From Synechococcus elongatus PCC 6301 (GTDB lineage Bacteria; Cyanobacteriota; Cyanobacteriia; Synechococcales; Synechococcaceae), in NCBI RefSeq assembly GCF_000010065.1, contig NC_006576.1, positions 720,001-752,000 on the forward strand: 32,000 bases of DNA, given 5' to 3'. Below, piece by piece: positions 7,754 to 29,603 of this stretch; positions within the stretch are counted from its first letter, which is position 1, and each line of letters begins with the position of its first letter. A program made the translations under genes and the position numbers. Below the pieces are notes generated by a model. It saw only the letters and a program-made list of their open reading frames with translations. It did not search any database and was not told the origin of the DNA.

Positions 7754-7827
7754 TTCTAGCGACTACAAATCCCGTTACAATATTTAATACGTTCGATTTA
7801 GCGATCGACGCTTTCAAGGAGGTTCCA

Positions 7828-9912
7828 GTGGCACGTTCCGTTCCGCTCGAAAAGGTTAGAAATATCGGTATTGCTGCCCACATTGATGCGGGCAAAACCA
7901 CGACGACGGAGCGCATCCTGTTTTATTCAGGCGTCGTCCACAAAATCGGTGAAGTTCATGACGGTAACGCTGTTACCGACTGGATGGAGCAAGAGCGGGA
8001 GCGGGGTATCACGATCACCGCTGCTGCAATCAGCACCAGCTGGAAAGACTATCGCGTCAACATCATTGACACCCCCGGCCACGTGGACTTCACGATTGAA
8101 GTCGAACGTTCGATGCGGGTTCTCGACGGTGTTGTAGCTGTCTTCTGCTCGGTGGGTGGTGTACAGCCCCAGTCAGAAACCGTCTGGCGTCAAGCCGATC
8201 GCTACAGCGTGCCTCGGATCGTATTCGTCAACAAGATGGATCGTACTGGGGCTGACTTCTTCAAGGTCTATGGCCAAATCCGCGATCGCGTGAGAGCCAA
8301 CGCCGTTCCGATTCAAATTCCCATTGGTGCTGAGAGCGATTTCCAAGGCATTGTTGACCTTGTCGAAATGAAGGCTCACATCTATACCAACGATTTAGGT
8401 ACCGACATTTTAGTCACCGATATTCCCGCAGAACTGCAGGAAACGGCTGCTGAATGGCGCTCCAAAATGGTTGAAGCCGTCGCTGAAACGGATGAAGCGC
8501 TGCTCGACAAATACTTCGAAGATGGCGACCTCAGCATTGAGGACATCAAAGCCGGTCTGCGCAAGGGCGTGTTGATCCAAGGCAACGATCGCTTGGTGCC
8601 AATGCTCTGCGGTTCAGCTTTCAAAAACAAAGGGGTTCAGCTGTTGCTGGATGCGGTGGTTGAACTGCTGCCTTCGCCTCAAGACATTCCGCCGATTCAA
8701 GGCACACTGCCAGATGGCGAAGTTGCTCTGCGTCCTTCTAGCGACGAAGCACCTTTCTCCGCTTTGGCCTTCAAGATCATGGCCGATCCCTACGGCCGCT
8801 TGACCTTTGTGCGGGTCTACTCTGGCATCCTGCAAAAAGGTAGCTACGTCTACAACGCCACCAAAGGGAAGAAAGAACGGGTTTCCCGTCTGATCATCCT
8901 CAAGGCTGATGACCGGATTGAAGTCGACGAGCTGCGTGCTGGCGACCTAGGTGCTGTGCTGGGTCTCAAAGACACCTTCACGGGCGACACCCTCTGCGAT
9001 GATCAAAACCCGATCATCCTTGAGTCTCTGTTCATTCCCGAGCCGGTTATTTCGGTCGCGGTTGAGCCCAAAACCAAGAACGATATGGAAAAACTTTCGA
9101 AGGCGTTGCAAGCGCTTTCGGAAGAAGATCCGACCTTCCGTGTCTCAGTCGACTCTGAGACGAACCAAACGGTCATCGCTGGCATGGGCGAACTCCACCT
9201 CGAAATCTTGGTGGATCGGATGCTGCGGGAGTACAAAGTTGAAGCCAACATCGGTGCTCCTCAGGTTGCCTACCGTGAGACAGTTCGTAAGGCTGTCAAA
9301 GCGGAAGGTAAGTTTGTCCGCCAGAGCGGTGGTAAAGGTCAGTACGGTCACGTTGTGATCGAACTAGAGCCGGCTGAGCCTGGTACTGGTTTCGAGTTTG
9401 TCTCCAAGATCGTCGGCGGTACGGTGCCGAAAGAGTACGTCGGTCCTGCCGAGCAGGGGATGAAAGAAACCTGCGAATCGGGCGTCTTGGCGGGATACCC
9501 GCTCATCGATATCAAGGCCACCTTGGTCGATGGCTCGTATCACGACGTCGACTCGTCTGAGATGGCCTTTAAGATCGCTGGTTCCATGGCGATCAAAGAA
9601 GCCGTTCGGAAAGCCGATCCAGTTCTGCTGGAGCCGGTGATGAAGGTGGAAGTGGAAGTACCGGAAGACTTCCTCGGTTCAGTGATGGGCAACCTGATCT
9701 CCCGCCGAGGTCAAATCGAAGGCCAAGCAACCACCAATGGCACGGCCACTGTTTCGGCCAAAGTGCCCCTGGCCGAGATGTTCGGCTATGCAACTGACCT
9801 GCGGTCGATGACCCAGGGTCGGGGCATCTTCACGATGGAGTTCAGTCAGTACGAGGAAGTTCCCCGTAATGTGGCTGAAACGATCATCGCCAAAAACAAA
9901 GGGAACGCTTAA
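7828..9912 (+). CDS. fusA: translation elongation factor G
   Basis: GTG start preceded by AAGGAGG at 7816-7822. G-domain motifs are [20 protein letters not shown] and NKMD. Length is 694 aa and it sits in the expected str operon position. Confidence 0.98.
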
Positions 9913-9938
9913 GTAACCTAAAGGAAGACTGAACGCCA

Positions 9939-11168
9939 ATGGCACGCGCTAAGTTTGAACGCACCAAGCCTCACGCAAACATCGGGACCATCGGTCACGT
10001 TGACCACGGTAAAACGACGCTGACGGCAGCTATCACCACTGTGTTGGCGAAAGCTGGCATGGCTAAAGCCCGCGCTTACGCTGATATCGACGCAGCTCCG
10101 GAAGAAAAAGCTCGTGGTATCACGATCAACACGGCTCACGTTGAATACGAAACCGGCAACCGTCACTACGCTCACGTTGACTGTCCCGGTCACGCTGACT
10201 ACGTGAAAAACATGATCACGGGTGCTGCGCAGATGGACGGCGCCATCCTCGTGGTGTCGGCTGCTGACGGCCCCATGCCCCAAACTCGCGAGCACATTCT
10301 GCTGGCGAAACAGGTCGGCGTTCCCAACATCGTCGTTTTCTTGAATAAAGAAGACATGGTTGATGACGCTGAACTGTTGGAATTGGTGGAGTTGGAAGTC
10401 CGTGAGCTGCTGAGCTCCTACGATTTCCCTGGCGATGACATCCCCATCGTGGCTGGTTCGGCTCTGCAAGCCTTGGAAGCCATTCAAGGTGGCGCTTCGG
10501 GTCAGAAAGGTGACAACCCTTGGGTTGACAAAATCCTGAAGCTGATGGAAGAAGTCGACGCCTACATCCCCACTCCTGAGCGGGAAGTCGATCGCCCCTT
10601 CCTGATGGCGGTGGAAGACGTCTTCACGATTACCGGTCGTGGCACGGTGGCGACTGGCCGGATCGAGCGTGGCAGCGTCAAGGTTGGCGAAACGATCGAA
10701 ATCGTTGGTTTGCGTGACACCCGCAGCACCACCGTTACCGGTGTGGAAATGTTCCAGAAGACCCTCGACGAAGGTCTGGCTGGCGACAACGTCGGTCTGC
10801 TGCTCCGCGGTATCCAAAAAACCGATATCGAGCGCGGTATGGTCTTGGCCAAACCCGGTTCGATTACGCCTCACACCAAGTTTGAGTCTGAGGTCTACGT
10901 GCTCAAGAAAGAAGAAGGGGGTCGTCACACTCCGTTCTTCCCGGGCTATCGTCCTCAGTTCTACGTGCGGACAACCGACGTGACCGGCGCGATCTCGGAC
11001 TTCACCGCTGACGACGGTTCGGCAGCTGAAATGGTGATCCCGGGCGATCGCATCAAGATGACGGTTGAACTGATCAACCCGATCGCAATTGAGCAAGGCA
11101 TGCGCTTTGCAATCCGTGAAGGCGGCCGCACCATCGGTGCTGGTGTCGTTTCCAAAATCCTCCAGTAG
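9939..11168 (+). CDS. tufA: translation elongation factor Tu
   Basis: [33 protein letters not shown]..., with DCPGHADY and NKEDMV motifs; 409 aa. Confidence 0.99.
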
Positions 11169-11241: not shown

Positions 11242-11559
11242 ATGGCTACCCTGCAGCAGCAGAAAATTCGGATTCGTCTCAAGGCCTTTGACCGTCGACT
11301 GCTGGACACCTCCTGTGATCGCATTGTCGAAACCGCCAACCGCACCAACGCCACCGCGATCGGCCCGATTCCGTTGCCGACTCGTCGTCGCATCTATTGC
11401 GTGTTGCGATCGCCCCACGTTGACAAAGACTCGCGTGAGCACTTTGAAACGCGGACGCACCGTCGGATCATCGACATCTACCAGCCGTCCTCGAAAACGA
11501 TCGATGCGTTGATGAAGCTCGATCTGCCTGCTGGGGTAGACATCGAAGTTAAGCTCTAG
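11242..11559 (+). CDS. rpsJ: 30S ribosomal protein S10
   Basis: [22 protein letters not shown]...[38 protein letters not shown] is canonical S10. Confidence 0.98.
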
Positions 11560-11570
11560 TCATCACTGGA

Positions 11571-11608
11571 AACAAGAAGCGGGAAGGAACTCCCGCTTCT
11601 TGTTTTTT
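11571..11608 (+). terminator. Rho-independent terminator of the str/rpsJ transcript
   Basis: Perfect 14-bp stem aacaagaagcggga (11571-11584) pairs with tcccgcttcttgtt (11591-11604), with a 6-nt loop and a following T run through 11608. Confidence 0.8.
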
Positions 11609-11768
11609 AGCCAATCTTCGAATCATGATTGCCTTGGTATCGTCCCCAACATTGATCAGGTAAAGTTAAGTAACAAGTTTCTGAGACTCGTTCCCACGGC
11701 AATCTTTAGGTTGTTCTCGGGAGTCGTAATCGTCTCACACCATTCCTTTAGACGGCGCGATAAGCCTC

Positions 11769-12425
11769 ATGGCAACTGACTCCCTGTCTGTGCGCGAGTT
11801 ACCTCTATTTCCTTTGCCGGAAGTTGTGTTATTCCCGGGGCGATTGTTGCCGCTACATATCTTTGAATATCGCTATCGCATTCTGATCCAAACCATTTTG
11901 GAGAGCGATCGCCGCTTTGGCGTGTTGCTTTGGGATCCGGCCAAGGATGAAGCTGCAACGATTGGTTGTTGTGCAGAGTTAATCCGCCATCAGCGGTTGC
12001 CGGACGATCGCATGAATGTTTGGACGTTGGGTCAACAGCGGTTTCGCGTATTGGACTACGTGCGCGAAAAGCCCTTTCGGGTAGGCCTTGTCGAGTGGAT
12101 TGAAGATGAACCCACCGATGAAGATCTCAAACCCTTAGCGACTGAGGTCAACACCGTCCTGCAGGATGTCGTGCAGTTGTCGGGCAAACTATCCGGCCAA
12201 GAAATTGAATTGCCGGACGATCTGCCGGACCTGCCACGGGAGTTGTCCTACTGGGTCGCAGGCCATCTCTACGGCGTCTATGAAGAGCAGCAAAGTCTGC
12301 TCGAAATGCTGAACACCCGCGATCGCCTCGATCGCGAACTAGAAATTTTGGGGTCGACCCGCAGTCACTTGGCTGCCCGTACCGTCCTCAAAGATACGCT
12401 CAACAGTTTTCAAAACCCGAGCTAG
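11769..12425 (+). CDS. Lon protease N-terminal (substrate-binding) domain protein
   Basis: LPLFPLPEVVLFPGRLLPLHIFEYRYR...RFGVLL... is the hallmark opening of the LON N-terminal domain. At 218 aa it has no AAA or protease part. Confidence 0.8.
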   Translation: MATDSLSVRELPLFPLPEVVLFPGRLLPLHIFEYRYRILIQTILESDRRFGVLLWDPAKDEAATIGCCAELIRHQRLPDDRMNVWTLGQQRFRVLDYVREKPFRVGLVEWIEDEPTDEDLKPLATEVNTVLQDVVQLSGKLSGQEIELPDDLPDLPRELSYWVAGHLYGVYEEQQSLLEMLNTRDRLDRELEILGSTRSHLAARTVLKDTLNSFQNPS

Positions 12426-23415: not shown

Positions 23416-26400
23416 ATGGCAGTGCTGCACGGTGGCTGGCTCGGCGATCGCTTCTGCGTTTGGGCCGAGGCTTGGCAGGCTGGTGAGCCTCAGTCGGCAG
23501 CAGAAATTGCGATTCATCCCTACGCGATCGCGGCCACTGACTTAAATGATTGGTGCCAGAAGTACCGTCTGGGATCCCTGACGGGGACGCCAACAGAAGT
23601 CCTGCTCTCTATTCCCAGTGACCTGAAGAAAGAGGCGGTTCTACCGTTTCTGAGTGGTCAGGAAATTCCAGATGGGGCGCTGCTTTGGTCTTGGCAGATC
23701 CCCGTGCTGTCGCTAGAAGCCGCGATCGCCGGTCAATGGCTGGCGACCTTGCCGCTGGGTTCGGCGGAGGATCATCCTTGGCTGGGGCCAGATCTACGCT
23801 TTTGGAGCCACATCTACCGCTGGGCACAAAGTTTGCTGGCTCGGGGGCGCTTTTATCCGGCGCTGGAGTCGAGCGATCGCGGTTTAACGGCAGTTTGGTT
23901 GCCACTGTTTAATCAAGCGGGCGATCGCCAGCGCTTCGATCGCTATAGTCAGCAGCTGCCCTTTAGTCAGTTTTGCTATCAGGCAATCGAAACAGCGGCA
24001 GCTTGTCCTTGGCAGCCTCAACCGCAGGATCTGTTGCTGCGAGTCCTACAGACTTGGTTGACAGCACGACTACAACCGGCGATCGCGGCGGGAACTCTCG
24101 TGTCTGCTGATCTGCTGGCGGCTTGGCAGCAATCGCTAGCGAATGGAAAACCGCTAAAGCTAGAAGACAGTGAAGCCAGTCGCTTGCAAACGGCGATCGA
24201 TCGCTGGTTACTACCAGTGCAGAATGGCGCAGCTCAGGCTTGGCGGATGGTTTTGCGCCTTGTCCCGCCTACGGAGCAAGAGCAGCCCTGGCAATTGGAG
24301 TTTGGCTTACAAGCAGCGACCGATCCCGATCGCTTTCGGCCGGCCTCTCTCCTCTGGCAGGATCCGCTGCCACCTGGGCTACCAGATCAATCTCAGGAAT
24401 TGCTGTTACGCGGCTTGGGACAGGCTTGTCGGCTCTATCCCCAATTGCAAACCAGTCTGGCGACAGCCTGTCCAGAATTCCATCCACTGACCACAGCGGA
24501 GGTCTATCAGCTGCTCAAGCAGGTGATTCCTCAGTGGCAAGAGCAGGGCATTGAAGTGCAACTGCCGCCGGGCTTGCGTGGTCAAGGGCGACACCGGCTG
24601 GGAGTGGAAGTCAGCGCCACGTTGCCGAGCGATCGCCCGAGTGTGGGGCTGGAAGCACTACTGCAGTTTCGTTGGGAGCTGAGTCTGGGCGGTCAGCGGC
24701 TGACCAAAGCAGAAGTGGAACGCTTGGCAGCCCTGGAAACGCCCTTGGTGGAAATCAACGGCGACTGGATTGAGGTGCGGCCGCAGGATATTGAGTCGGC
24801 GCGAGAGTTTTTCCGTAAGCGCAAGGATCAGCCAAATTTGACCTTGGCGGATGCGATCGCGATCGCCAGTGGTGAGTCGCCGAATGTTGGTCGCCTGCCG
24901 GTGGTCAATTTTGAAGCGGCGGGCTTACTCGAAGAAGCCTTGGCCGTGTTTCAGGGGCAGCGATCGCCTGCGGCTTTGCCCGCTCCGCCCACCTTTCAGG
25001 GCGAGCTGCGACCCTATCAAGAGCGGGGGGTGGGCTGGCTCAGCTTTTTGCAGCGCTTCGGGATTGGGGCTTGCCTCGCCGACGACATGGGCTTGGGTAA
25101 GACGATTCAGCTGCTGGCCTTTTTACTGCATCTCAAACACAGCAACGAGCTGACGCGGCCGGTGCTGCTAGTCTGTCCGACTTCGGTGCTGGGCAACTGG
25201 GAACGGGAGGTGCAGAAATTTGCACCGGAGCTTCGCTGGAAGCTGCACTATGGCCCCGATCGCGCTCAGGGTAAGGCTTTGGCGACAGCGCTCAAGGACT
25301 GCGATTTGGTGCTGACCAGTTACTCCTTGGTGGCGCGAGATCAGAAAGCGATCGCGGCGATCGACTGGCAAGGCATTGTGCTGGATGAAGCCCAGAACAT
25401 CAAGAATGACCAGGCGAAACAGACGCAGGCGGTGCGAGCGATCGCCCAAAGTCCGACGCAAAAGCCCCGCTTTCGGATTGCCCTGACAGGGACGCCGGTT
25501 GAGAATCGCCTCAGTGAGTTGTGGTCGATTGTCGAGTTTTTGCAGCCGGGACATTTAGGCACCAAGCCATTCTTTCAAAAGCGCTTTGTCACGCCGATCG
25601 AGCGTTTTGGCGATGCGGATTCGCTGACAGCATTGCGGCAGCGCGTGCAACCGTTAATCCTACGGCGACTGAAAACCGATCGCAGCATTATTGCCGACTT
25701 GCCTGAGAAGCAAGAAATGACGGTCTTTTGTCCGTTGGTACAGGAGCAGGCCGATCGCTATCAGGTGCTAGTCAATGAAGCGCTAGCCAATATTGAAGCA
25801 AGTGAAGGCATTCAGCGGCGCGGCCAGATTTTGGCATTGCTAACGCGACTGAAGCAGCTCTGTAATCATCCGTCGTTGTTGCTCGAAAAGCCGAAGCTCG
25901 ATCCGAATTTTGGCGATCGCTCAGCCAAGTTGCAGCGCTTACTAGAAATGTTGGCGGAGCTAACGGATGCGGGCGATCGCGCTTTGGTGTTTACGCAGTT
26001 TGCGGGCTGGGGTAGTTTGCTGCAGCAATTTTTGCAGGAACAGCTAGGGCGAGAGGTGCTGTTTTTGTCGGGCAGTACCAAGAAGGGCGATCGCCAACAG
26101 ATGGTTGATCGCTTCCAAAATGATCCGCAGGCACCGGCAATTTTCATCCTGTCATTGAAGGCTGGCGGGGTGGGGCTCAACCTGACGAAAGCCAATCATG
26201 TCTTTCATTACGATCGCTGGTGGAATCCGGCAGTTGAAAACCAAGCGACCGATCGCGCGTTTCGGATTGGGCAACGACGCAATGTACAGGTGCACAAGTT
26301 TGTCTGCGCTGGCACTCTAGAAGAAAAAATTGATCAGATGATCGCTAGCAAGCAAGCATTAGCACAGCAGATTGTCGGTAGTGGTGAGGATTGGCTAACG

Positions 26401-26475
26401 GAACTAGACACCAATCAACTCCGGCAACTCTTGATCCTCGATCGCTCAGCTTGGGTAGAAGAGGAAGAGCCTTAG
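23416..26475 (+). CDS. SNF2-family DEAD/DEAH-box helicase with long N-terminal region and SNF2-associated domain
   Basis: LRPYQERGVGWLSFL, DDMGLGKT, DEAQNIKN, TGTPVENRL, and helicase C motifs LSLKAGGVGLNLT and WWNPAVENQATDRAFRIGQ. The segment upstream of the ATPase (GGQRLTKAEVERLAALETPLVEINGDWIEV) resembles the bacterial SNF2-associated domain. Confidence 0.9.
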   Translation: MAVLHGGWLGDRFCVWAEAWQAGEPQSAAEIAIHPYAIAATDLNDWCQKYRLGSLTGTPTEVLLSIPSDLKKEAVLPFLSGQEIPDGALLWSWQIPVLSLEAAIAGQWLATLPLGSAEDHPWLGPDLRFWSHIYRWAQSLLARGRFYPALESSDRGLTAVWLPLFNQAGDRQRFDRYSQQLPFSQFCYQAIETAAACPWQPQPQDLLLRVLQTWLTARLQPAIAAGTLVSADLLAAWQQSLANGKPLKLEDSEASRLQTAIDRWLLPVQNGAAQAWRMVLRLVPPTEQEQPWQLEFGLQAATDPDRFRPASLLWQDPLPPGLPDQSQELLLRGLGQACRLYPQLQTSLATACPEFHPLTTAEVYQLLKQVIPQWQEQGIEVQLPPGLRGQGRHRLGVEVSATLPSDRPSVGLEALLQFRWELSLGGQRLTKAEVERLAALETPLVEINGDWIEVRPQDIESAREFFRKRKDQPNLTLADAIAIASGESPNVGRLPVVNFEAAGLLEEALAVFQGQRSPAALPAPPTFQGELRPYQERGVGWLSFLQRFGIGACLADDMGLGKTIQLLAFLLHLKHSNELTRPVLLVCPTSVLGNWEREVQKFAPELRWKLHYGPDRAQGKALATALKDCDLVLTSYSLVARDQKAIAAIDWQGIVLDEAQNIKNDQAKQTQAVRAIAQSPTQKPRFRIALTGTPVENRLSELWSIVEFLQPGHLGTKPFFQKRFVTPIERFGDADSLTALRQRVQPLILRRLKTDRSIIADLPEKQEMTVFCPLVQEQADRYQVLVNEALANIEASEGIQRRGQILALLTRLKQLCNHPSLLLEKPKLDPNFGDRSAKLQRLLEMLAELTDAGDRALVFTQFAGWGSLLQQFLQEQLGREVLFLSGSTKKGDRQQMVDRFQNDPQAPAIFILSLKAGGVGLNLTKANHVFHYDRWWNPAVENQATDRAFRIGQRRNVQVHKFVCAGTLEEKIDQMIASKQALAQQIVGSGEDWLTELDTNQLRQLLILDRSAWVEEEEP

Positions 26476-26553
26476 AGAAGAAAAAATTCGATAGAAGCCA
26501 ATATCATGCATGCAGAAATAATATGAGCCGAATCTTTCAAGAATAAAAGTTTT

Positions 26554-26640
26554 TTATTCTGAGTGAACTCAGAGTGTATTGGGTTCTAGGTTTTTATTTG
26601 ACTTCCAAAAAATAAATGTTATTCTGTTGACCCCAGAGTA
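26554..26640 (+). promoter_or_regulatory. two copies of a palindrome-like motif, TTATTCTG-N8-CAGAGT and TTATTCTG-N7-CAGAGT (possible operators)
   Basis: Copy 1 is at 26554-26575 and contains the perfect inverted repeat TCTGAGT-GA-ACTCAGA at 26558-26573. Copy 2 is at 26619-26639 and overlaps the candidate -10 and the predicted transcription start. Confidence 0.35.
26598..26625 (+). promoter_or_regulatory. candidate promoter of the islet ORF
   Basis: TTGACT at 26598-26603, a 16-nt spacer, then TATTCT at 26620-26625 preceded by TGn (26617-26619), an extended -10 pattern. It lies about 44 nt upstream of the ATG at 26669. Confidence 0.35.
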
Positions 26641-26668
26641 AATTTGTAATCTTTCAGGGGCTAATATT

Positions 26669-27757
26669 ATGGAAAAACGTTATCAAATATTTATTAGCTC
26701 AACTTTTATTGACCTCAAAGACGAGCGACAAGCTGCATTAAAGGCAATTCTAGAGATCGATCATATGCCAGCAGGAATGGAGCTATTTTCTGCAACTGAT
26801 GATTCGGCATGGCAGCTTATTCAAGATGTTATAGATAGTTCTGACTACTATATTTTGATTGTTGGTGGTCGATACGGCTCCCTAGATGAGGCAGGTCTTA
26901 GCTATACAGAAAAAGAATATGATTATGCACTTTTGACCAAGAAGCCTGTAATACCGCTGCTTCACGAAAACCCAGACAATTTACCAAGGGACAAGACAGA
27001 AACTGATAGTAATGCTTGGAAAAAATTACAAGACTTCAGAAAAAAGGTACAAAAAAAGCATACATGTGTTTATTGGCGAAACGCAGATGACTTAAAGGCT
27101 AAAGTAATTGTTGGATTGACTTCAGCGATCAAGCGACATCCTGCAGTTGGGTGGGTTAGAGCTGATAAGGTTCCAACAGAAACAGCTTTAGCTGAAGTTC
27201 TCTCTCTCAAGAATAAAATTACAGAACTAGAGAAGGAGGCAGCCTTATTAAGAGACAAGCCTCCATCTGGAACTGAGTTTTTAGCACAGGGAAATGACAA
27301 ATATGAAATTCACCTCTCTTTCAAATCTCGAGGAAAGTTCTCTATCTTTTCACATGATGAGGACAAAAAGTATAATGCATCGATAAACCTAACCTGGAAT
27401 GCCATATTTGCAGCAGTTGCTCCATCAATGATTAACGAAGCTTCTGCCCATACTCTTCGTCAAGCATTTACAGATTTCTTCAAACGGGAATCATTAAAGG
27501 CTTTCCAGAGTCAAAAGAGGTTTGAGAATTATGAGTTAGTTGATTTTTCCTTTCACAAAGATGAAATTGAGACCTGTATAGTTCAGCTTAGAGCTCTTGG
27601 ACTAATAAAGGAAAACGATCGAAAACGCAGTGTTAGCGACACTAGCACCTATTGGACGCTTACTCCATATGGTAATACCCTTATGGTTCAGCTTCGTGCA
27701 ATAAAACGTGAGCCTCTCGAGGATGAAGACCTTGATGGAACTGCTGTCGAATCATAA
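26669..27757 (+). CDS. DUF4062-type (TIR / nucleoside 2-deoxyribosyltransferase-like) domain protein with central coiled coil and winged-helix-like C-terminus
   Basis: 362-aa ORF with AT-rich codon usage. N-terminus YQIFISSTFIDLKDERQAALKAILEIDHMPAGMELFSATDDSAWQLIQDVIDSSDYYILIVGGRYGS...SYTEKEYDYALLTKKPVIPLL matches the DUF4062 pattern as I remember it. LKNKITELEKEAALLRDK is coiled-coil-like. The C-terminal IVQLRALGLIKEN...STYWTLTPYGNTLM looks like a wHTH. Confidence 0.75.
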   Translation: MEKRYQIFISSTFIDLKDERQAALKAILEIDHMPAGMELFSATDDSAWQLIQDVIDSSDYYILIVGGRYGSLDEAGLSYTEKEYDYALLTKKPVIPLLHENPDNLPRDKTETDSNAWKKLQDFRKKVQKKHTCVYWRNADDLKAKVIVGLTSAIKRHPAVGWVRADKVPTETALAEVLSLKNKITELEKEAALLRDKPPSGTEFLAQGNDKYEIHLSFKSRGKFSIFSHDEDKKYNASINLTWNAIFAAVAPSMINEASAHTLRQAFTDFFKRESLKAFQSQKRFENYELVDFSFHKDEIETCIVQLRALGLIKENDRKRSVSDTSTYWTLTPYGNTLMVQLRAIKREPLEDEDLDGTAVES

Positions 27758-27924
27758 TATTAGAAGCGAAGTAGTTTTCTAGCCGACAGAAGTCATTGTT
27801 ATCGATCAGTCTAATTGTCAACTGTTTTACTCCTAGCTCTATCTAGGTAGTATTTATTAATCTGCTTTTATGAAAGCATCTAATGCTAAATATTTTTTGA
27901 TCAAAATAAAAATAAAAGCAATAT

Positions 27925-28503
27925 CTATAAAGTAAAAGGAGTCCCCCACTGCCGCCAATTCTGCTTATTGAAGGGCGATCGCCAATAATCGATCAGGATA
28001 GTTTCGAGTTGTTGGCGAGGTCGTGTTTGCGTGGGTGCATTCAGCCAAAAGCCAATGCCCACCTCACAAGCCAAACCATGCTGATGATGGAGCGACTGAT
28101 AGCGAGCCACATAATCCTTGCAATCGTGTTCCCCTTTCCATCGCTGATTCGCCTTAATCGTTTCGCCCACATAGAGCAATAGCGAACAGTGATAGTCAAT
28201 CACAAAGTAAAGCGCTGCCGTGCCTGCACTTGCTGCAGGCCAACGCCAAAACTCCAAACTGCGGCGACGTAACTGCCACGGATCAATACTGTGGGCGATC
28301 GCCTCAGCCTCAGGTACCTGTCCAAATAAATCCGTTGGTAATGGCGGAGGTTGCGATCGCAACGCCGACTGAAAATTAATAATCCGCTGCTTCCAAGCCT
28401 CCAACGACTCTGCCGATTGCTCATGCTCGGCGGGCGTACTGCCATAACGAGCCGCCTCTAACTCCCGCACCTGTGATCGGCCAAATAGCGGCAACTGTTC
28501 CAT
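27925..28503 (-). CDS. GIY-YIG nuclease superfamily protein with ~95-aa N-terminal extension
   Basis: ALYFVIDYHCSLLLYVGETIKANQRWKGEH fits GIY-x(9-11)-YIG followed by conserved Arg and His. Downstream, LETILIDYWRSPFNKQ fits the catalytic Glu and the P-x-x-N element. Composition is host-like and includes HIP1 sites. Confidence 0.65.
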   Translation of the reverse strand: MEQLPLFGRSQVRELEAARYGSTPAEHEQSAESLEAWKQRIINFQSALRSQPPPLPTDLFGQVPEAEAIAHSIDPWQLRRRSLEFWRWPAASAGTAALYFVIDYHCSLLLYVGETIKANQRWKGEHDCKDYVARYQSLHHQHGLACEVGIGFWLNAPTQTRPRQQLETILIDYWRSPFNKQNWRQWGTPFTL

Positions 28504-28549
28504 TTTGAAGGAGGTATATTGTGGATGTTCAGTAATGCAAGTTGATTAT

Positions 28550-28759
28550 ATGAAGACTCACAGCTTCACAGCGATTGTTTACAAGGAGGATGATGTTTAC
28601 ATTGCTGAGTGCCCCGAAATTGGAACAGTTGATCAAGGAGAAACGATCGAACAAGCGATCGCAGGTTTAAAGGAAGCGACAAGACTCTACTTAGAAGAAT
28701 TTCCTATGCCAAAAACATCACCTCGATTTCTCACTAATATTGAAGTGAGCTATGCCTAA
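28550..28759 (+). CDS. hicB: HicB-family (UPF0150) antitoxin, short form
   Basis: MKTHSFTAIVYKEDDVYIAECPEIGTVDQGETIEQAIAGLKEATRLYLEEF is a typical HicB fold sequence. The track begins at TTG 28505; I prefer ATG 28550 by analogy with family N-termini. ATG 28535 is also possible. Confidence 0.8.
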   Translation: MKTHSFTAIVYKEDDVYIAECPEIGTVDQGETIEQAIAGLKEATRLYLEEFPMPKTSPRFLTNIEVSYA

Positions 28760-28979
28760 ATTGCCACGCGTCTCAAGCCGAGAGGTGATTCGGGCACTGG
28801 AACGTTTAGGGTTTGTATTGATTCGACAGACAGGTAGTCATGTCGTGCTGAAGAAAGTCACAGCAGAAGGTGAAATTGGCTGTGTTGTTCCTGTCCATCG
28901 AGAGTTAAAAGTCGGCACTCTAAATAGCATCCTAAAACAGGCAAAAGTGACCATTGAGGATTTCATTGATAACCTGTAA
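28752..28979 (+). CDS. hicA: HicA-family mRNA interferase toxin
   Basis: LPRVSSREVIRALERLGFVLIRQTGSHVVLKK...VVPVHRELKVGTLNSILKQAKVTIEDF is the YcfA/HicA signature, including GSH. It overlaps hicB by 8 nt. Confidence 0.88.
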   Translation: MPKLPRVSSREVIRALERLGFVLIRQTGSHVVLKKVTAEGEIGCVVPVHRELKVGTLNSILKQAKVTIEDFIDNL

Positions 28980-29012: not shown

Positions 29013-29603
29013 TCAGAAGCGGAGACAAGGTAGCCACTGGGCGATCGCTTCTGGAGATAGTTGTAGCCGTCGCTGAAAATCAGCGATATCTCGATAGGGA
29101 CCGCGCAGCAAACGCTGATGAATAATCTCACGGGCGATCGCTTCATTCACCCCTGGTAGAGTCTCTAGAATTTCAGGATATTTGGCTCGATTCACCCAAC
29201 AAGGAACGATCGCAACTTCAGGTTCTGCTTCGTAATAGCGAAACACCAGAATCGGCGCGATCGCTTGTAATTGGCTAACGTCTAATCCCAAGGCCTGAGC
29301 CACATCGTCCAGATCCGCAAAGAAGAAGCCTTGCTGCCGTAGCTGCACCAAAGTTGTTGTTTGCCTAGGTGTAATCTCAGGTAGCCTTAGCCAGTCTTCA
29401 GCAGCCGCACAGTTAACATCTAACCGCAGACCTAAACTCGCGGCCACTTCCACTTCCAGCGCATTCTGAAAGCGATAATTCGGGTTTTGCTGCAAGCGTT
29501 GCTGCAGGATTTGTTGCAGTTGTCGCCAAGCCGGAGAAGGGCGATCGCGCTGACTGGTCGCCCACTGTTGCAGGGGTTTGAACCAAGCTGCGATCGCCTC
29601 CAT
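29013..29603 (-). CDS. helix-hairpin-helix (ComEA-like) domain protein
   Basis: Two HhH-like segments: DWLRLPEITPRQTTTLVQLRQQGFFFADLDDVAQALGL and LETLPGVNEAIAREIIHQRLLRGPYRDIADFQRRLQLS. It starts 8 nt downstream of the ABC1 kinase stop. Confidence 0.6.
   Translation of the reverse strand: MEAIAAWFKPLQQWATSQRDRPSPAWRQLQQILQQRLQQNPNYRFQNALEVEVAASLGLRLDVNCAAAEDWLRLPEITPRQTTTLVQLRQQGFFFADLDDVAQALGLDVSQLQAIAPILVFRYYEAEPEVAIVPCWVNRAKYPEILETLPGVNEAIAREIIHQRLLRGPYRDIADFQRRLQLSPEAIAQWLPCLRF

Follow-up and report, generated by a model that had tools for sequence, protein, structure and literature searches.

How did a short AT-rich segment, devoid of the highly iterated palindrome 1 (HIP1; GCGATCGC), come to lie between two core genes of Synechococcus elongatus, and what does it encode? 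The segment, hereafter the islet, occupies positions 26476–27924 of a 32,000-nt stretch of the S. elongatus PCC 6301 chromosome (NC_006576.1, positions 720,001–752,000), which is referred to as the window. Its gene, left unnamed in a preliminary description of the window, was assigned to the Swarozyc family of defence genes and is called swz. Taken together, the results indicate that the islet is very probably a horizontally acquired, strain-variable, single-gene cassette for a Swarozyc-family defence protein (Swz). Judged by its sequence, the cargo adds a new cyanobacterial member to a family of defence systems first described in 2026.

Identification of the swz Gene Product

The 362-aa product of swz (ABB56903.1) is currently annotated as "DUF4062 domain-containing protein" only. 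An identical product is encoded on the chromosome of S. elongatus PCC 7942 (CP000100.1; at about 867–880 kb, in reverse orientation), as well as in the PCC 6301 resequence (CP085785.1). A Pfam scan of Swz revealed a match to the full DUF4062 profile (PF13271; profile positions 1–82; E-value, 4.9 × 10−30; 104 bits vs. a cut-off of 24.7 bits) and nothing beyond it except for a sub-threshold match to TIR_2 (18.9 vs. 28 bits). The sequence search of PDB chains gave a single strong match, KpSwz of Klebsiella pneumoniae (10wc, 11cq, 11cv; E-value, 2.1 × 10−67). Residues 2–347 of Swz align with residues 3–324 of the 326-residue KpSwz chain, and the alignment runs on through chain residues 165–324, in the region of the stalk and the AUX domain. 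The two proteins are 37% identical overall and 48% identical across the DUF4062 domain (164 aa). In addition, the whole protein matches PHROG 15411 (E-value, 2 × 10−100).

KpSwz is the founding member of the Swarozyc family, described in a preprint of May 2026 by Osinski et al. (10.64898/2026.05.01.722283). It is a single-gene anti-phage system, for which defence, NAD+ depletion and activation by the phage portal were shown experimentally. The protein is inactive as a head-to-head oligomer and becomes activated when its C-terminal helix-turn-helix (HTH)/winged-helix domain, AUX, binds the portal, the interface being reported as flexible and heterogeneous (10.64898/2026.05.01.722283). The NADase activity and defence role of DUF4062 are supported independently (10.64898/2026.09.04.749371; 10.64898/2026.06.25.731849), while phage-triggered NAD+ hydrolysis with abortive infection was shown for KpSwz and a few homologues only (10.64898/2026.05.01.722283).

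The deposited KpSwz chain is an E97A mutant, in which E97 corresponds to the Ala at chain position 84; the offset of +13 between chain and published numbering was derived from W163 = W176 and W225/Y226 = W238/Y239. The counterpart of the catalytic E97 in Swz is E83, which is invariant among 24 aligned homologues. The AlphaFold2 model of Swz (mean predicted local distance difference test score, 76.6) comprises a beta-alpha-beta core (residues 5–163), a helix (171–194), a hairpin (211–242), and helices with a wing (297–343). Foldseek matched the core to SPARTA TIR-APAZ, AbTir, SARM1 and plant TIRs, as well as to the CMP N-glycosidase BcmB and DNPH1. The same pattern of TIR/NDT fold matches has been published for DUF4062. 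The Foldseek PDB library used ends in April 2026 and predates the release of KpSwz, which was retrieved by the sequence-based PDB search instead.

When the AUX domain alone was used as a query, it matched KpSwz with an E-value of 3 × 10−16 (27% identity) and retrieved 706 cluster representatives. Separately, as many as 32 stretches of one 4490-aa protein (P0326), an apparent giant repeat protein, match the winged-helix end of AUX (query residues 118–158).

Since swz is the only gene in the 1449-bp cargo and the neighbours of its homologues are unrelated, it seems to stand alone and to need no partner gene. Swz thus has the TIR-like DUF4062 domain, the catalytic Glu, the stalk followed by a winged-helix AUX domain, and the stand-alone gene of a Swarozyc system, and departs from it in the portal-anchoring hairpin. 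The Trp-Tyr pair at the tip of the KpSwz hairpin (W238/Y239) has no counterpart in Swz: the aligned segment, RGKFSIFSHDED, has a 5-residue insertion and no Trp-Tyr, and the position of the pair is aligned with ...KFSIFSH.... Residues 221–240 and 261–300 are the least conserved blocks of the family, whereas the winged-helix core is conserved, a distribution that corresponds to the published rigid core and flexible recognition modules. The hairpin tip is likely to determine specificity and not to define the family.

Proposed Mode of Action

Based on homology to KpSwz, Swz would rest as an auto-inhibited oligomer. Its AUX winged-helix domain would bind a trigger made by the phage, which in the case of KpSwz is the portal dodecamer, and the binding would shift the stalk helices into a new alignment, turning on the TIR-like DUF4062 domain at the N terminus. 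Active Swz would then destroy NAD+, killing the phage-infected cell. The NADase activity, the anti-phage function and the trigger of Swz are all predicted from this comparison.

It is possible, although we consider it improbable, that Swz is a genuine Swarozyc-type NADase with a trigger other than the portal, such as another virion protein, a replication protein or a nucleic acid bound by the winged helix, in which case the KpSwz mechanism would fit the effector half only. The non-conserved Trp-Tyr anchor, the insertion in the hairpin and the location of hairpin residues 221–240 and of region 261–300 in the most variable parts of the family are consistent with such a trigger, and so is the variety of triggers (terminase, lambdap79, replication proteins) in other DUF4062 systems. 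On the other hand, AUX is homologous to its KpSwz counterpart over the whole length, at the E-value given above, and the flexible, heterogeneous interface of KpSwz suggests that the anchor residues may co-vary with the portal of the cognate phage.

Composition of the Islet

The islet is atypical relative to the host core in G+C content (0.369 vs. 0.56), in G+C content at third codon positions (GC3; 0.309) and in HIP1 content (0 sites). The AT-richness remarked upon in the preliminary description is confirmed by the values of 36.9% G+C for the islet and 56.0% for the whole window. Over all 1449-bp segments of the window, the mean G+C content is 55.9% (standard deviation, 4.6%), and the minimum of 37.1% is found at position 26501, inside the islet. 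In a 100-bp profile, the G+C content drops at about 26500 and returns at about 28000. The A/T-ending codons, which were earlier said to set the islet open reading frame (ORF) apart from its neighbours, are reflected in its GC3, since the other 11 long ORFs of the window (stop-to-stop, at least 250 codons) have values of 0.59–0.69. A local dip in G+C content to 0.488 was also recorded at 11501–12000, with a HIP1 site at 11905 inside it.

In total, the window contains 89 HIP1 sites, compared to 1.6 expected from shuffling. As had been noted previously, none of them lies between 26095 and 27974: the nearest sites, at 26087–26094 and 27975–27982, enclose a gap of 1888 bp. This gap, earlier taken as a mark of acquisition, is real, but it is only the second largest in the window; a Poisson model predicts about 0.47 such gaps, and the probability of finding 0 sites in 1449 bp is 0.016 at the core rate of 2.85/kb. 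The largest gap (8282–11044; 2762 bp) covers fusA (EF-G, 7828–9912) and tuf (EF-Tu, 9939–11168), where the G+C content is normal, so that a HIP1 gap alone is not diagnostic. By itself it is weak evidence of foreign origin, and it is the combination with G+C content and GC3 that is diagnostic. Only when the cargo that six lineages carry at the slot described below is taken together does the HIP1 depletion become strong (3 sites in 7767 bp vs. 22 expected; P = 5 × 10−7). HIP1-based scans thus call for caution: core genes with high expression, fusA and tuf among them, can also be HIP1 deserts, and both G+C content and GC3 are needed as well.

The Slot and Its Cargo in Other S. elongatus Lineages

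Close relatives were reached via the 90%-identity cluster of the gene on the right of the islet, which encodes a 192-aa protein. Five other S. elongatus lineages, namely UTEX 3055, PCC 11801, CP144288, CP143871 and IITB4, retain this gene and the SNF2 helicase gene on the left of the islet at 87–98% nucleotide identity, without swz. The neighbourhood common to the five comprises genes for YajQ, DUF6825, an ABC1 kinase, a helix-hairpin-helix (HHH) protein, the 192-aa protein and the SNF2 helicase, and alanyl-tRNA synthetase is present in four of them. The same 90%-identity cluster holds a 90-aa partial protein (P0246) from a 271-bp contig labelled Klebsiella pneumoniae, which is probably an assembly contamination.

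In every comparison, homology breaks at 26468–26483 and resumes at 27924–27932. For UTEX 3055, it stops at 26477 and resumes at 27924, an almost exact match to the islet limits of 26476 and 27924 proposed beforehand. Slot 1, delimited by these breakpoints, contains Swz in PCC 7942 and PCC 6301 (1449 bp; G+C, 0.369; HIP1, 0), KTSC and DUF2188 proteins in UTEX 3055 (603 bp; 0.426; HIP1, 0), a GNAT protein and a 185-aa ORF in PCC 11801 (1812 bp; 0.363; HIP1, 1), a GNAT protein with 123-aa and 189-aa ORFs in CP144288 (2048 bp; 0.393; HIP1, 1), a DUF2806 protein in CP143871 (1196 bp; 0.401; HIP1, 0), and a GNAT protein only in IITB4 (659 bp; 0.384; HIP1, 1). UTEX 3055 (CP033061) has about 98.5% average nucleotide identity (ANI) to PCC 7942 (PMC9239245). 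Its DUF2188 gene (7817–8068 of locus L089), which adjoins a 44-aa KTSC-domain ORF, matches the PADLOC defence candidate PDC-S16 (E-value, 3 × 10−18).

The alignment of relatives at this locus, proposed in the preliminary description in the expectation that the helicase and GIY-YIG genes might be adjacent without the islet, confirmed the absence of the gene but not the adjacency, other cargo being present in each lineage. The lack of an empty site, with a different foreign cargo in each case, points to a hotspot at which cassettes are exchanged and not to one insertion into an unoccupied site. The helicase gene is kept in all of the S. elongatus lineages examined and is the presumed recombination anchor, located outside the cargo. 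A search of genome contigs with the helicase revealed 80 other cyanobacterial loci (46–53% identity), in which synteny is not conserved and neither the 192-aa gene nor Swz lies near the helicase (0 of 80). As an empty-site test, these distant cyanobacteria were uninformative because of the lack of conserved synteny.

Beyond the 192-aa gene there is a second slot with similar behaviour, which extends from the start codon of that gene to the stop codon of the HHH gene. In PCC 7942, as in the window, slot 2 holds an AT-rich patch with one HIP1 site, which encodes a HicB/HicA toxin–antitoxin pair. A GNAT gene occupies slot 2 in three lineages, DUF4145 and a 149-aa ORF are found there in IITB4, and in UTEX 3055 a HicB remnant is left with hicA deleted. 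The HHH gene adjoining slot 2 (29013–29603) encodes a 196-aa protein with tandem HHH_3 motifs of the ComEA/T2SSK type, which may have a connection to DNA uptake.

Origin of swz

The nearest full-length homologues of Swz, with 60–82% identity, are from metagenomes, Nitrosomonas, Pusillimonas, Hydrogenophaga, Neptunomonas, Gaiellales and Acidobacteria. They represent Proteobacteria, Actinobacteria and Acidobacteria, and no cyanobacteria are found among the organism-named nearest homologues; the best protein match (82% identity) is metagenomic. At the nucleotide level, the closest coding sequences share about 71% identity and are located on contigs with 50–63% G+C and no HIP1 enrichment. Based on composition, absence from five lineages and non-cyanobacterial nearest relatives, horizontal acquisition of the islet is supported. 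The preliminary description spoke of a relatively recent horizontal acquisition; the horizontal part stands on this evidence, whereas recency is not established. UTEX 3055 is the outlier in flank comparisons (see below), so that swz is possibly the older state in the PCC 7942/UTEX 3055 group: the gene may be ancestral to the group and may have been overwritten in UTEX 3055.

The opposite reading, according to which swz is an old resident with a composition shaped by functional constraint or selection, draws on the HIP1-free stretches of the undoubted core genes fusA and tuf and on Swz homologues that also lie below the G+C content of their own hosts (0.44 vs. 0.50 and 0.51 vs. 0.63). This reading is extremely improbable and already largely refuted, given that swz is absent from five related lineages, one of them at the ANI of UTEX 3055, and from the vicinity of the helicase in the 80 other cyanobacterial loci, that its GC3 (0.31) lies far below the values for resident genes, and that its nearest relatives are non-cyanobacterial.

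As to the vehicles, a Mu-like prophage of Nitrosomonas sp. Nm58 (FNPQ01000004.1; L097 520–10866) carries a 76%-identical homologue, with a 480-aa ORF on one side and a lysis/terminase/Portal_Mu/Mu_F block on the other. This homologue looks like a prophage-carried defence "moron". Relatives of Swz are also encoded on 8 IMG/VR contigs and represented by PHROG 15411, and full-length relatives are present on plasmids of Acinetobacter, Vibrio, Tenacibaculum and Paenarthrobacter. Prophages, viral contigs and plasmids are therefore possible vehicles outside S. elongatus. An Acetyltransf_3 fragment and a 123-aa ORF next to a 79%-identical Swz homologue raised the idea that Swz and the GNAT/123-aa cargo of other strains descend from one larger ancestral island; it was rejected, as blastp revealed no similarity of those two proteins to the S. 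elongatus cargo and tblastn no remnants within the islet.

Proposed Route of Cassette Exchange

The earlier observation that the islet is accompanied by no integrase, transposase, tRNA, terminal inverted repeats or target-site duplication was borne out by searches. No tRNA gene was found in the 32-kb window, no integrase or transposase gene among the neighbouring genes, and no terminal inverted repeats, target-site duplication or shared cargo-end motif at the slot junctions; as a junction signature, terminal repeats and target duplications were discarded, only short chance-level repeats being present. Insertion by a self-mobile element that later lost its machinery through decay (an insertion sequence, a cassette resembling a miniature inverted-repeat transposable element, an integrative element or a prophage remnant) is thus very unlikely. 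Homologues in a Mu-like prophage, on plasmids and on viral contigs would suit such an event, and an exact 13-nt direct repeat, AGAAGAAAAAATT, occurs inside the helicase gene (26319–26331) and at the first cargo nucleotides after the helicase stop codon (26476–26488). However, this repeat does not bracket the islet, the breakpoints at the gene ends are the same for all six cargos, which differ from one another and have no end sequence in common, and no remnants of phage genes or of the cargo of other strains were found in the islet.

A different route is suggested by the flanks. Between PCC 7942 and UTEX 3055, these are mostly 97–100% identical, but only about 80% identical in about 400 bp adjoining the slot. 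Within the 192-aa gene, the 3' 380 bp (27925–28300; L089 7200–7579) show about 80% identity and the 5' 200 bp 97.5%. In the part of this gene that adjoins the slot, the identity of UTEX 3055 to each of the other lineages is about 81%, whereas that of PCC 7942 to PCC 11801-type strains is 92–94%. Read most simply, these sequences suggest that a DNA fragment from a divergent relative brought in the UTEX 3055 cargo and was integrated through homologous recombination, one crossover having taken place within the 192-aa gene.

Given that natural competence is documented for S. elongatus (PMC9239245), the same route is the likeliest one for Swz: DNA taken up by competent cells would recombine in the conserved flanks and overwrite the slot. 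In this way, the space at which two core genes converge with their 3' ends would be refilled again and again with unrelated AT-rich cargo. Recombination in the flanks, rather than self-encoded mobility, is thus most likely how Swz entered.

A more speculative reading, which we regard as doubtful, is that the two slots around the 192-aa gene form a machinery-free exchange site, where natural transformation and flank homology, maybe assisted by breaks that the GIY-YIG-like protein itself introduces, keep swapping defence and toxin–antitoxin cargo between S. elongatus lineages, and where the Swz variant has a trigger different from the portal of enterobacterial phages. The variant, with its remodelled recognition hairpin, is part of a subfamily found at 60–82% identity across several phyla.

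Neighbouring Genes and Other Features

The coordinates of the features are collected in Table 1. The right-hand 192-aa gene has more than 1000 cyanobacterial homologues and is called a GIY-YIG nuclease in NCBI naming, while the left-hand helicase matches the PADLOC models of ZorD (E-value, 6 × 10−140) and DpdE (1 × 10−129). With HicAB 600 bp away, the islet might be viewed as a component of a larger defence island, together with a ZorD/DpdE-like SNF2 helicase, a GIY-YIG nuclease and HicAB. We consider such an arrangement hardly credible: both flanking genes have native G+C content and HIP1 density, are kept in strains without Swz and are widespread in cyanobacteria without Swz nearby. SNF2 domains match the ZorD and DpdE models generically, the Zorya and Dpd partner genes are absent at the locus, HicAB is located in a separate, independently varying slot, and KpSwz functions as a single gene. 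A Zorya/Dpd reading of the helicase itself was rejected, the similarity being that of a generic SNF2 protein encoded by a core gene. The SNF2/DUF3670 helicase is likely to be a false positive for automated defence finders.

The peptide QTGSHVVLK, attributed in a proteomics supplement to Synpcc7942_0870 ("YcfA-like"), lies in the HicA ORF, and Synpcc7942_0871 has been described as an essential toxin–antitoxin system protein, which fits the HicB antitoxin. From the gene order given by the HicA peptide and the consecutive accessions ABB56902.1 and ABB56903.1, the locus tags of the 192-aa gene, swz and the helicase gene are presumed to be Synpcc7942_0872, Synpcc7942_0873 and Synpcc7942_0874, respectively. 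In a literature search, no paper mentioning Synpcc7942_0873 was found, and cyanobacterial chromosomal copies are not discussed in the three DUF4062 preprints. In addition to the signals listed in Table 1, a possible ribosome-binding site (AGGGG) is located at −13 to −9 of swz.

Table 1. Positions of the islet, of swz and its predicted domains, and of neighbouring features in the window.
Feature	Position	Strand	Evidence
Islet (slot-1 cargo), bounded by the stop codons of the convergent SNF2 helicase and 192-aa genes	26476..27924	.	Composition, homology breaks
swz, Swarozyc-family DUF4062 predicted NADase, 362 aa	26669..27757	+	Pfam, KpSwz PDB and PHROG matches, GC3
TIR-like DUF4062 domain (predicted catalytic), residues 1–165	26669..27163	+	48% identity to KpSwz; AlphaFold2 core 5–163; Foldseek
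E83 codon GAA, counterpart of KpSwz catalytic E97	26915..26917	+	Alignment to A84 of the E97A chain
Predicted stalk helix, residues 171–194, effector–sensor link	27179..27250	+	AlphaFold2 helix; aligns with KpSwz stalk
AUX domain (predicted sensor), residues 201–347: beta-hairpin 211–242, variable helices, winged-helix core 297–343	27269..27709	+	KpSwz AUX homology, AlphaFold2
Promoter-like site: TTGACT, 16 nt, TATTCT, with TG; 44 nt upstream of ATG	26598..26625	+	Consensus scan, weak
Terminator-like hairpin and T-run after the helicase gene, within the cargo	26565..26586	+	Consensus match only
Weak terminator-like hairpin downstream of swz	27832..27847	+	Consensus match only
Left flank, core SNF2/DUF3670 helicase (presumed Synpcc7942_0874)	23416..26475	+	G+C 0.57, many HIP1
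Right flank, core 192-aa GIY-YIG-like gene (ABB56902.1; presumed Synpcc7942_0872), between the slots	27925..28503	−	G+C 0.525, 3 HIP1
Slot-2 cargo, HicB/HicA toxin–antitoxin pair (Synpcc7942_0871/0870)	28505..28979	+	HicA_toxin E = 4 × 10−20; G+C 0.40–0.45

Points against the Assignment

Several results weigh against the interpretation of the islet as an acquired Swarozyc cassette. Searches of PADLOC (2023) and NCBIfam (2026) with Swz gave zero matching models, so that a single characterised protein, KpSwz, provides the homology on which the Swarozyc assignment is based. The mechanism, too, is predicted from homology to KpSwz; the AUX domains share only 27% identity, and with W238/Y239 not conserved, the trigger of Swz may differ. 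As to acquisition, an empty slot, with the helicase and 192-aa genes adjacent, was seen in 0 of the six lineages. The search for a donor lineage, proposed earlier, was unsuccessful: neither a donor nor a near-identical copy of swz was found by protein and nucleotide comparison, the best nucleotide identity being the 71% given above. For the age of the gain there are only two limits, the divergence from the PCC 11801/11802 clade and a composition that shows no amelioration, and the recombination footprint in the flanks belongs to the UTEX 3055 cargo, not to Swz itself. Finally, the promoter scan yielded 8 sites vs. 5.9 expected in shuffles, which is no enrichment, and terminator calls were at chance level, with no enrichment over shuffles.

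Comparison with Known Systems

Swz shares with KpSwz the single-gene organization, the N-terminal TIR-like DUF4062 domain with a catalytic Glu, the stalk and the HTH/winged-helix AUX domain, aligned from end to end, as well as a patchy, horizontally spread distribution. It differs in the overall (37%) and AUX (27%) identity, in the replaced and lengthened Trp-Tyr hairpin tip, in activity that is predicted, in the cyanobacterial host, and in its location alone between core genes instead of in a multi-system defence island.

Evangelion Eva01 from Staphylococcus aureus pMW2 (10.64898/2026.06.25.731849) also combines a DUF4062 core and an auxiliary region in one gene, and its abortive NAD+-linked defence and carriage on mobile DNA may be counted as further likenesses to the predicted function of Swz. 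The similarity is confined to the DUF4062 core, however (residues 4–165; about 39–41% identity to staphylococcal plasmid proteins): the AUX of Eva01 is short and unrelated, and its trigger is tied to phage replication proteins. No such short AUX follows the DUF4062 core of Swz, and Swarozyc is treated as a lineage apart from Eva in the Evangelion paper (10.64898/2026.06.25.731849). Avs2-NIR, Vulcan and Vesta (10.64898/2026.09.04.749371) deplete NAD+ upon sensing a phage cue and, like Swz, have DUF4062 (= NIR) as the effector domain, which contains a catalytic Glu. Swz differs from them in lacking the STAND NTPase/TPR of Avs, the HEAT repeats of Vulcan and the alkaline-phosphatase partner of Vesta; no STAND/TPR, HEAT or alkaline phosphatase Pfam domains were found in Swz or in the neighbouring genes. 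The canonical TIR NADases (Thoeris ThsB/ThsA, SPARTA TIR-APAZ, AbTir, SARM1) share the N-terminal fold and, by homology, the Glu-dependent NAD+ glycohydrolase mechanism, but they form a distinct sequence family, and the dimer interface and autoinhibition of DUF4062 differ as published.

Work on pan-immune systems has described "hotspots" between conserved core genes, which hold varying accessory, toxin–antitoxin or defence cargo. The locus studied here resembles them in its fixed slot with AT-rich cargo that varies by strain, and differs in the very small size of the slot (one to three genes), its position between convergent stop codons, the lack of an integrase or tRNA gene, and the presence of an independent second slot, which adjoins the 192-aa gene at its other end.

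Significance

S. elongatus PCC 7942 is a leading cyanobacterial model, and the assignment of Swz would add a NAD+-depleting abortive-infection system to its immune repertoire, which is relevant to both cyanophage work and strain engineering. The Swarozyc family, characterised only in enterobacterial proteins, would at the same time be extended to cyanobacteria. With six lineages, six cargos and identical breakpoints, the slot represents a natural experiment on the turnover of small defence and toxin–antitoxin cassettes without mobility genes. The host is naturally transformable, so the native swz can be deleted or swapped, and, if the machinery-free exchange at the two slots and the different Swz trigger proved true, S. 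elongatus would be a genetically tractable native host for the study of Swarozyc sensing and of defence-cassette turnover by transformation.

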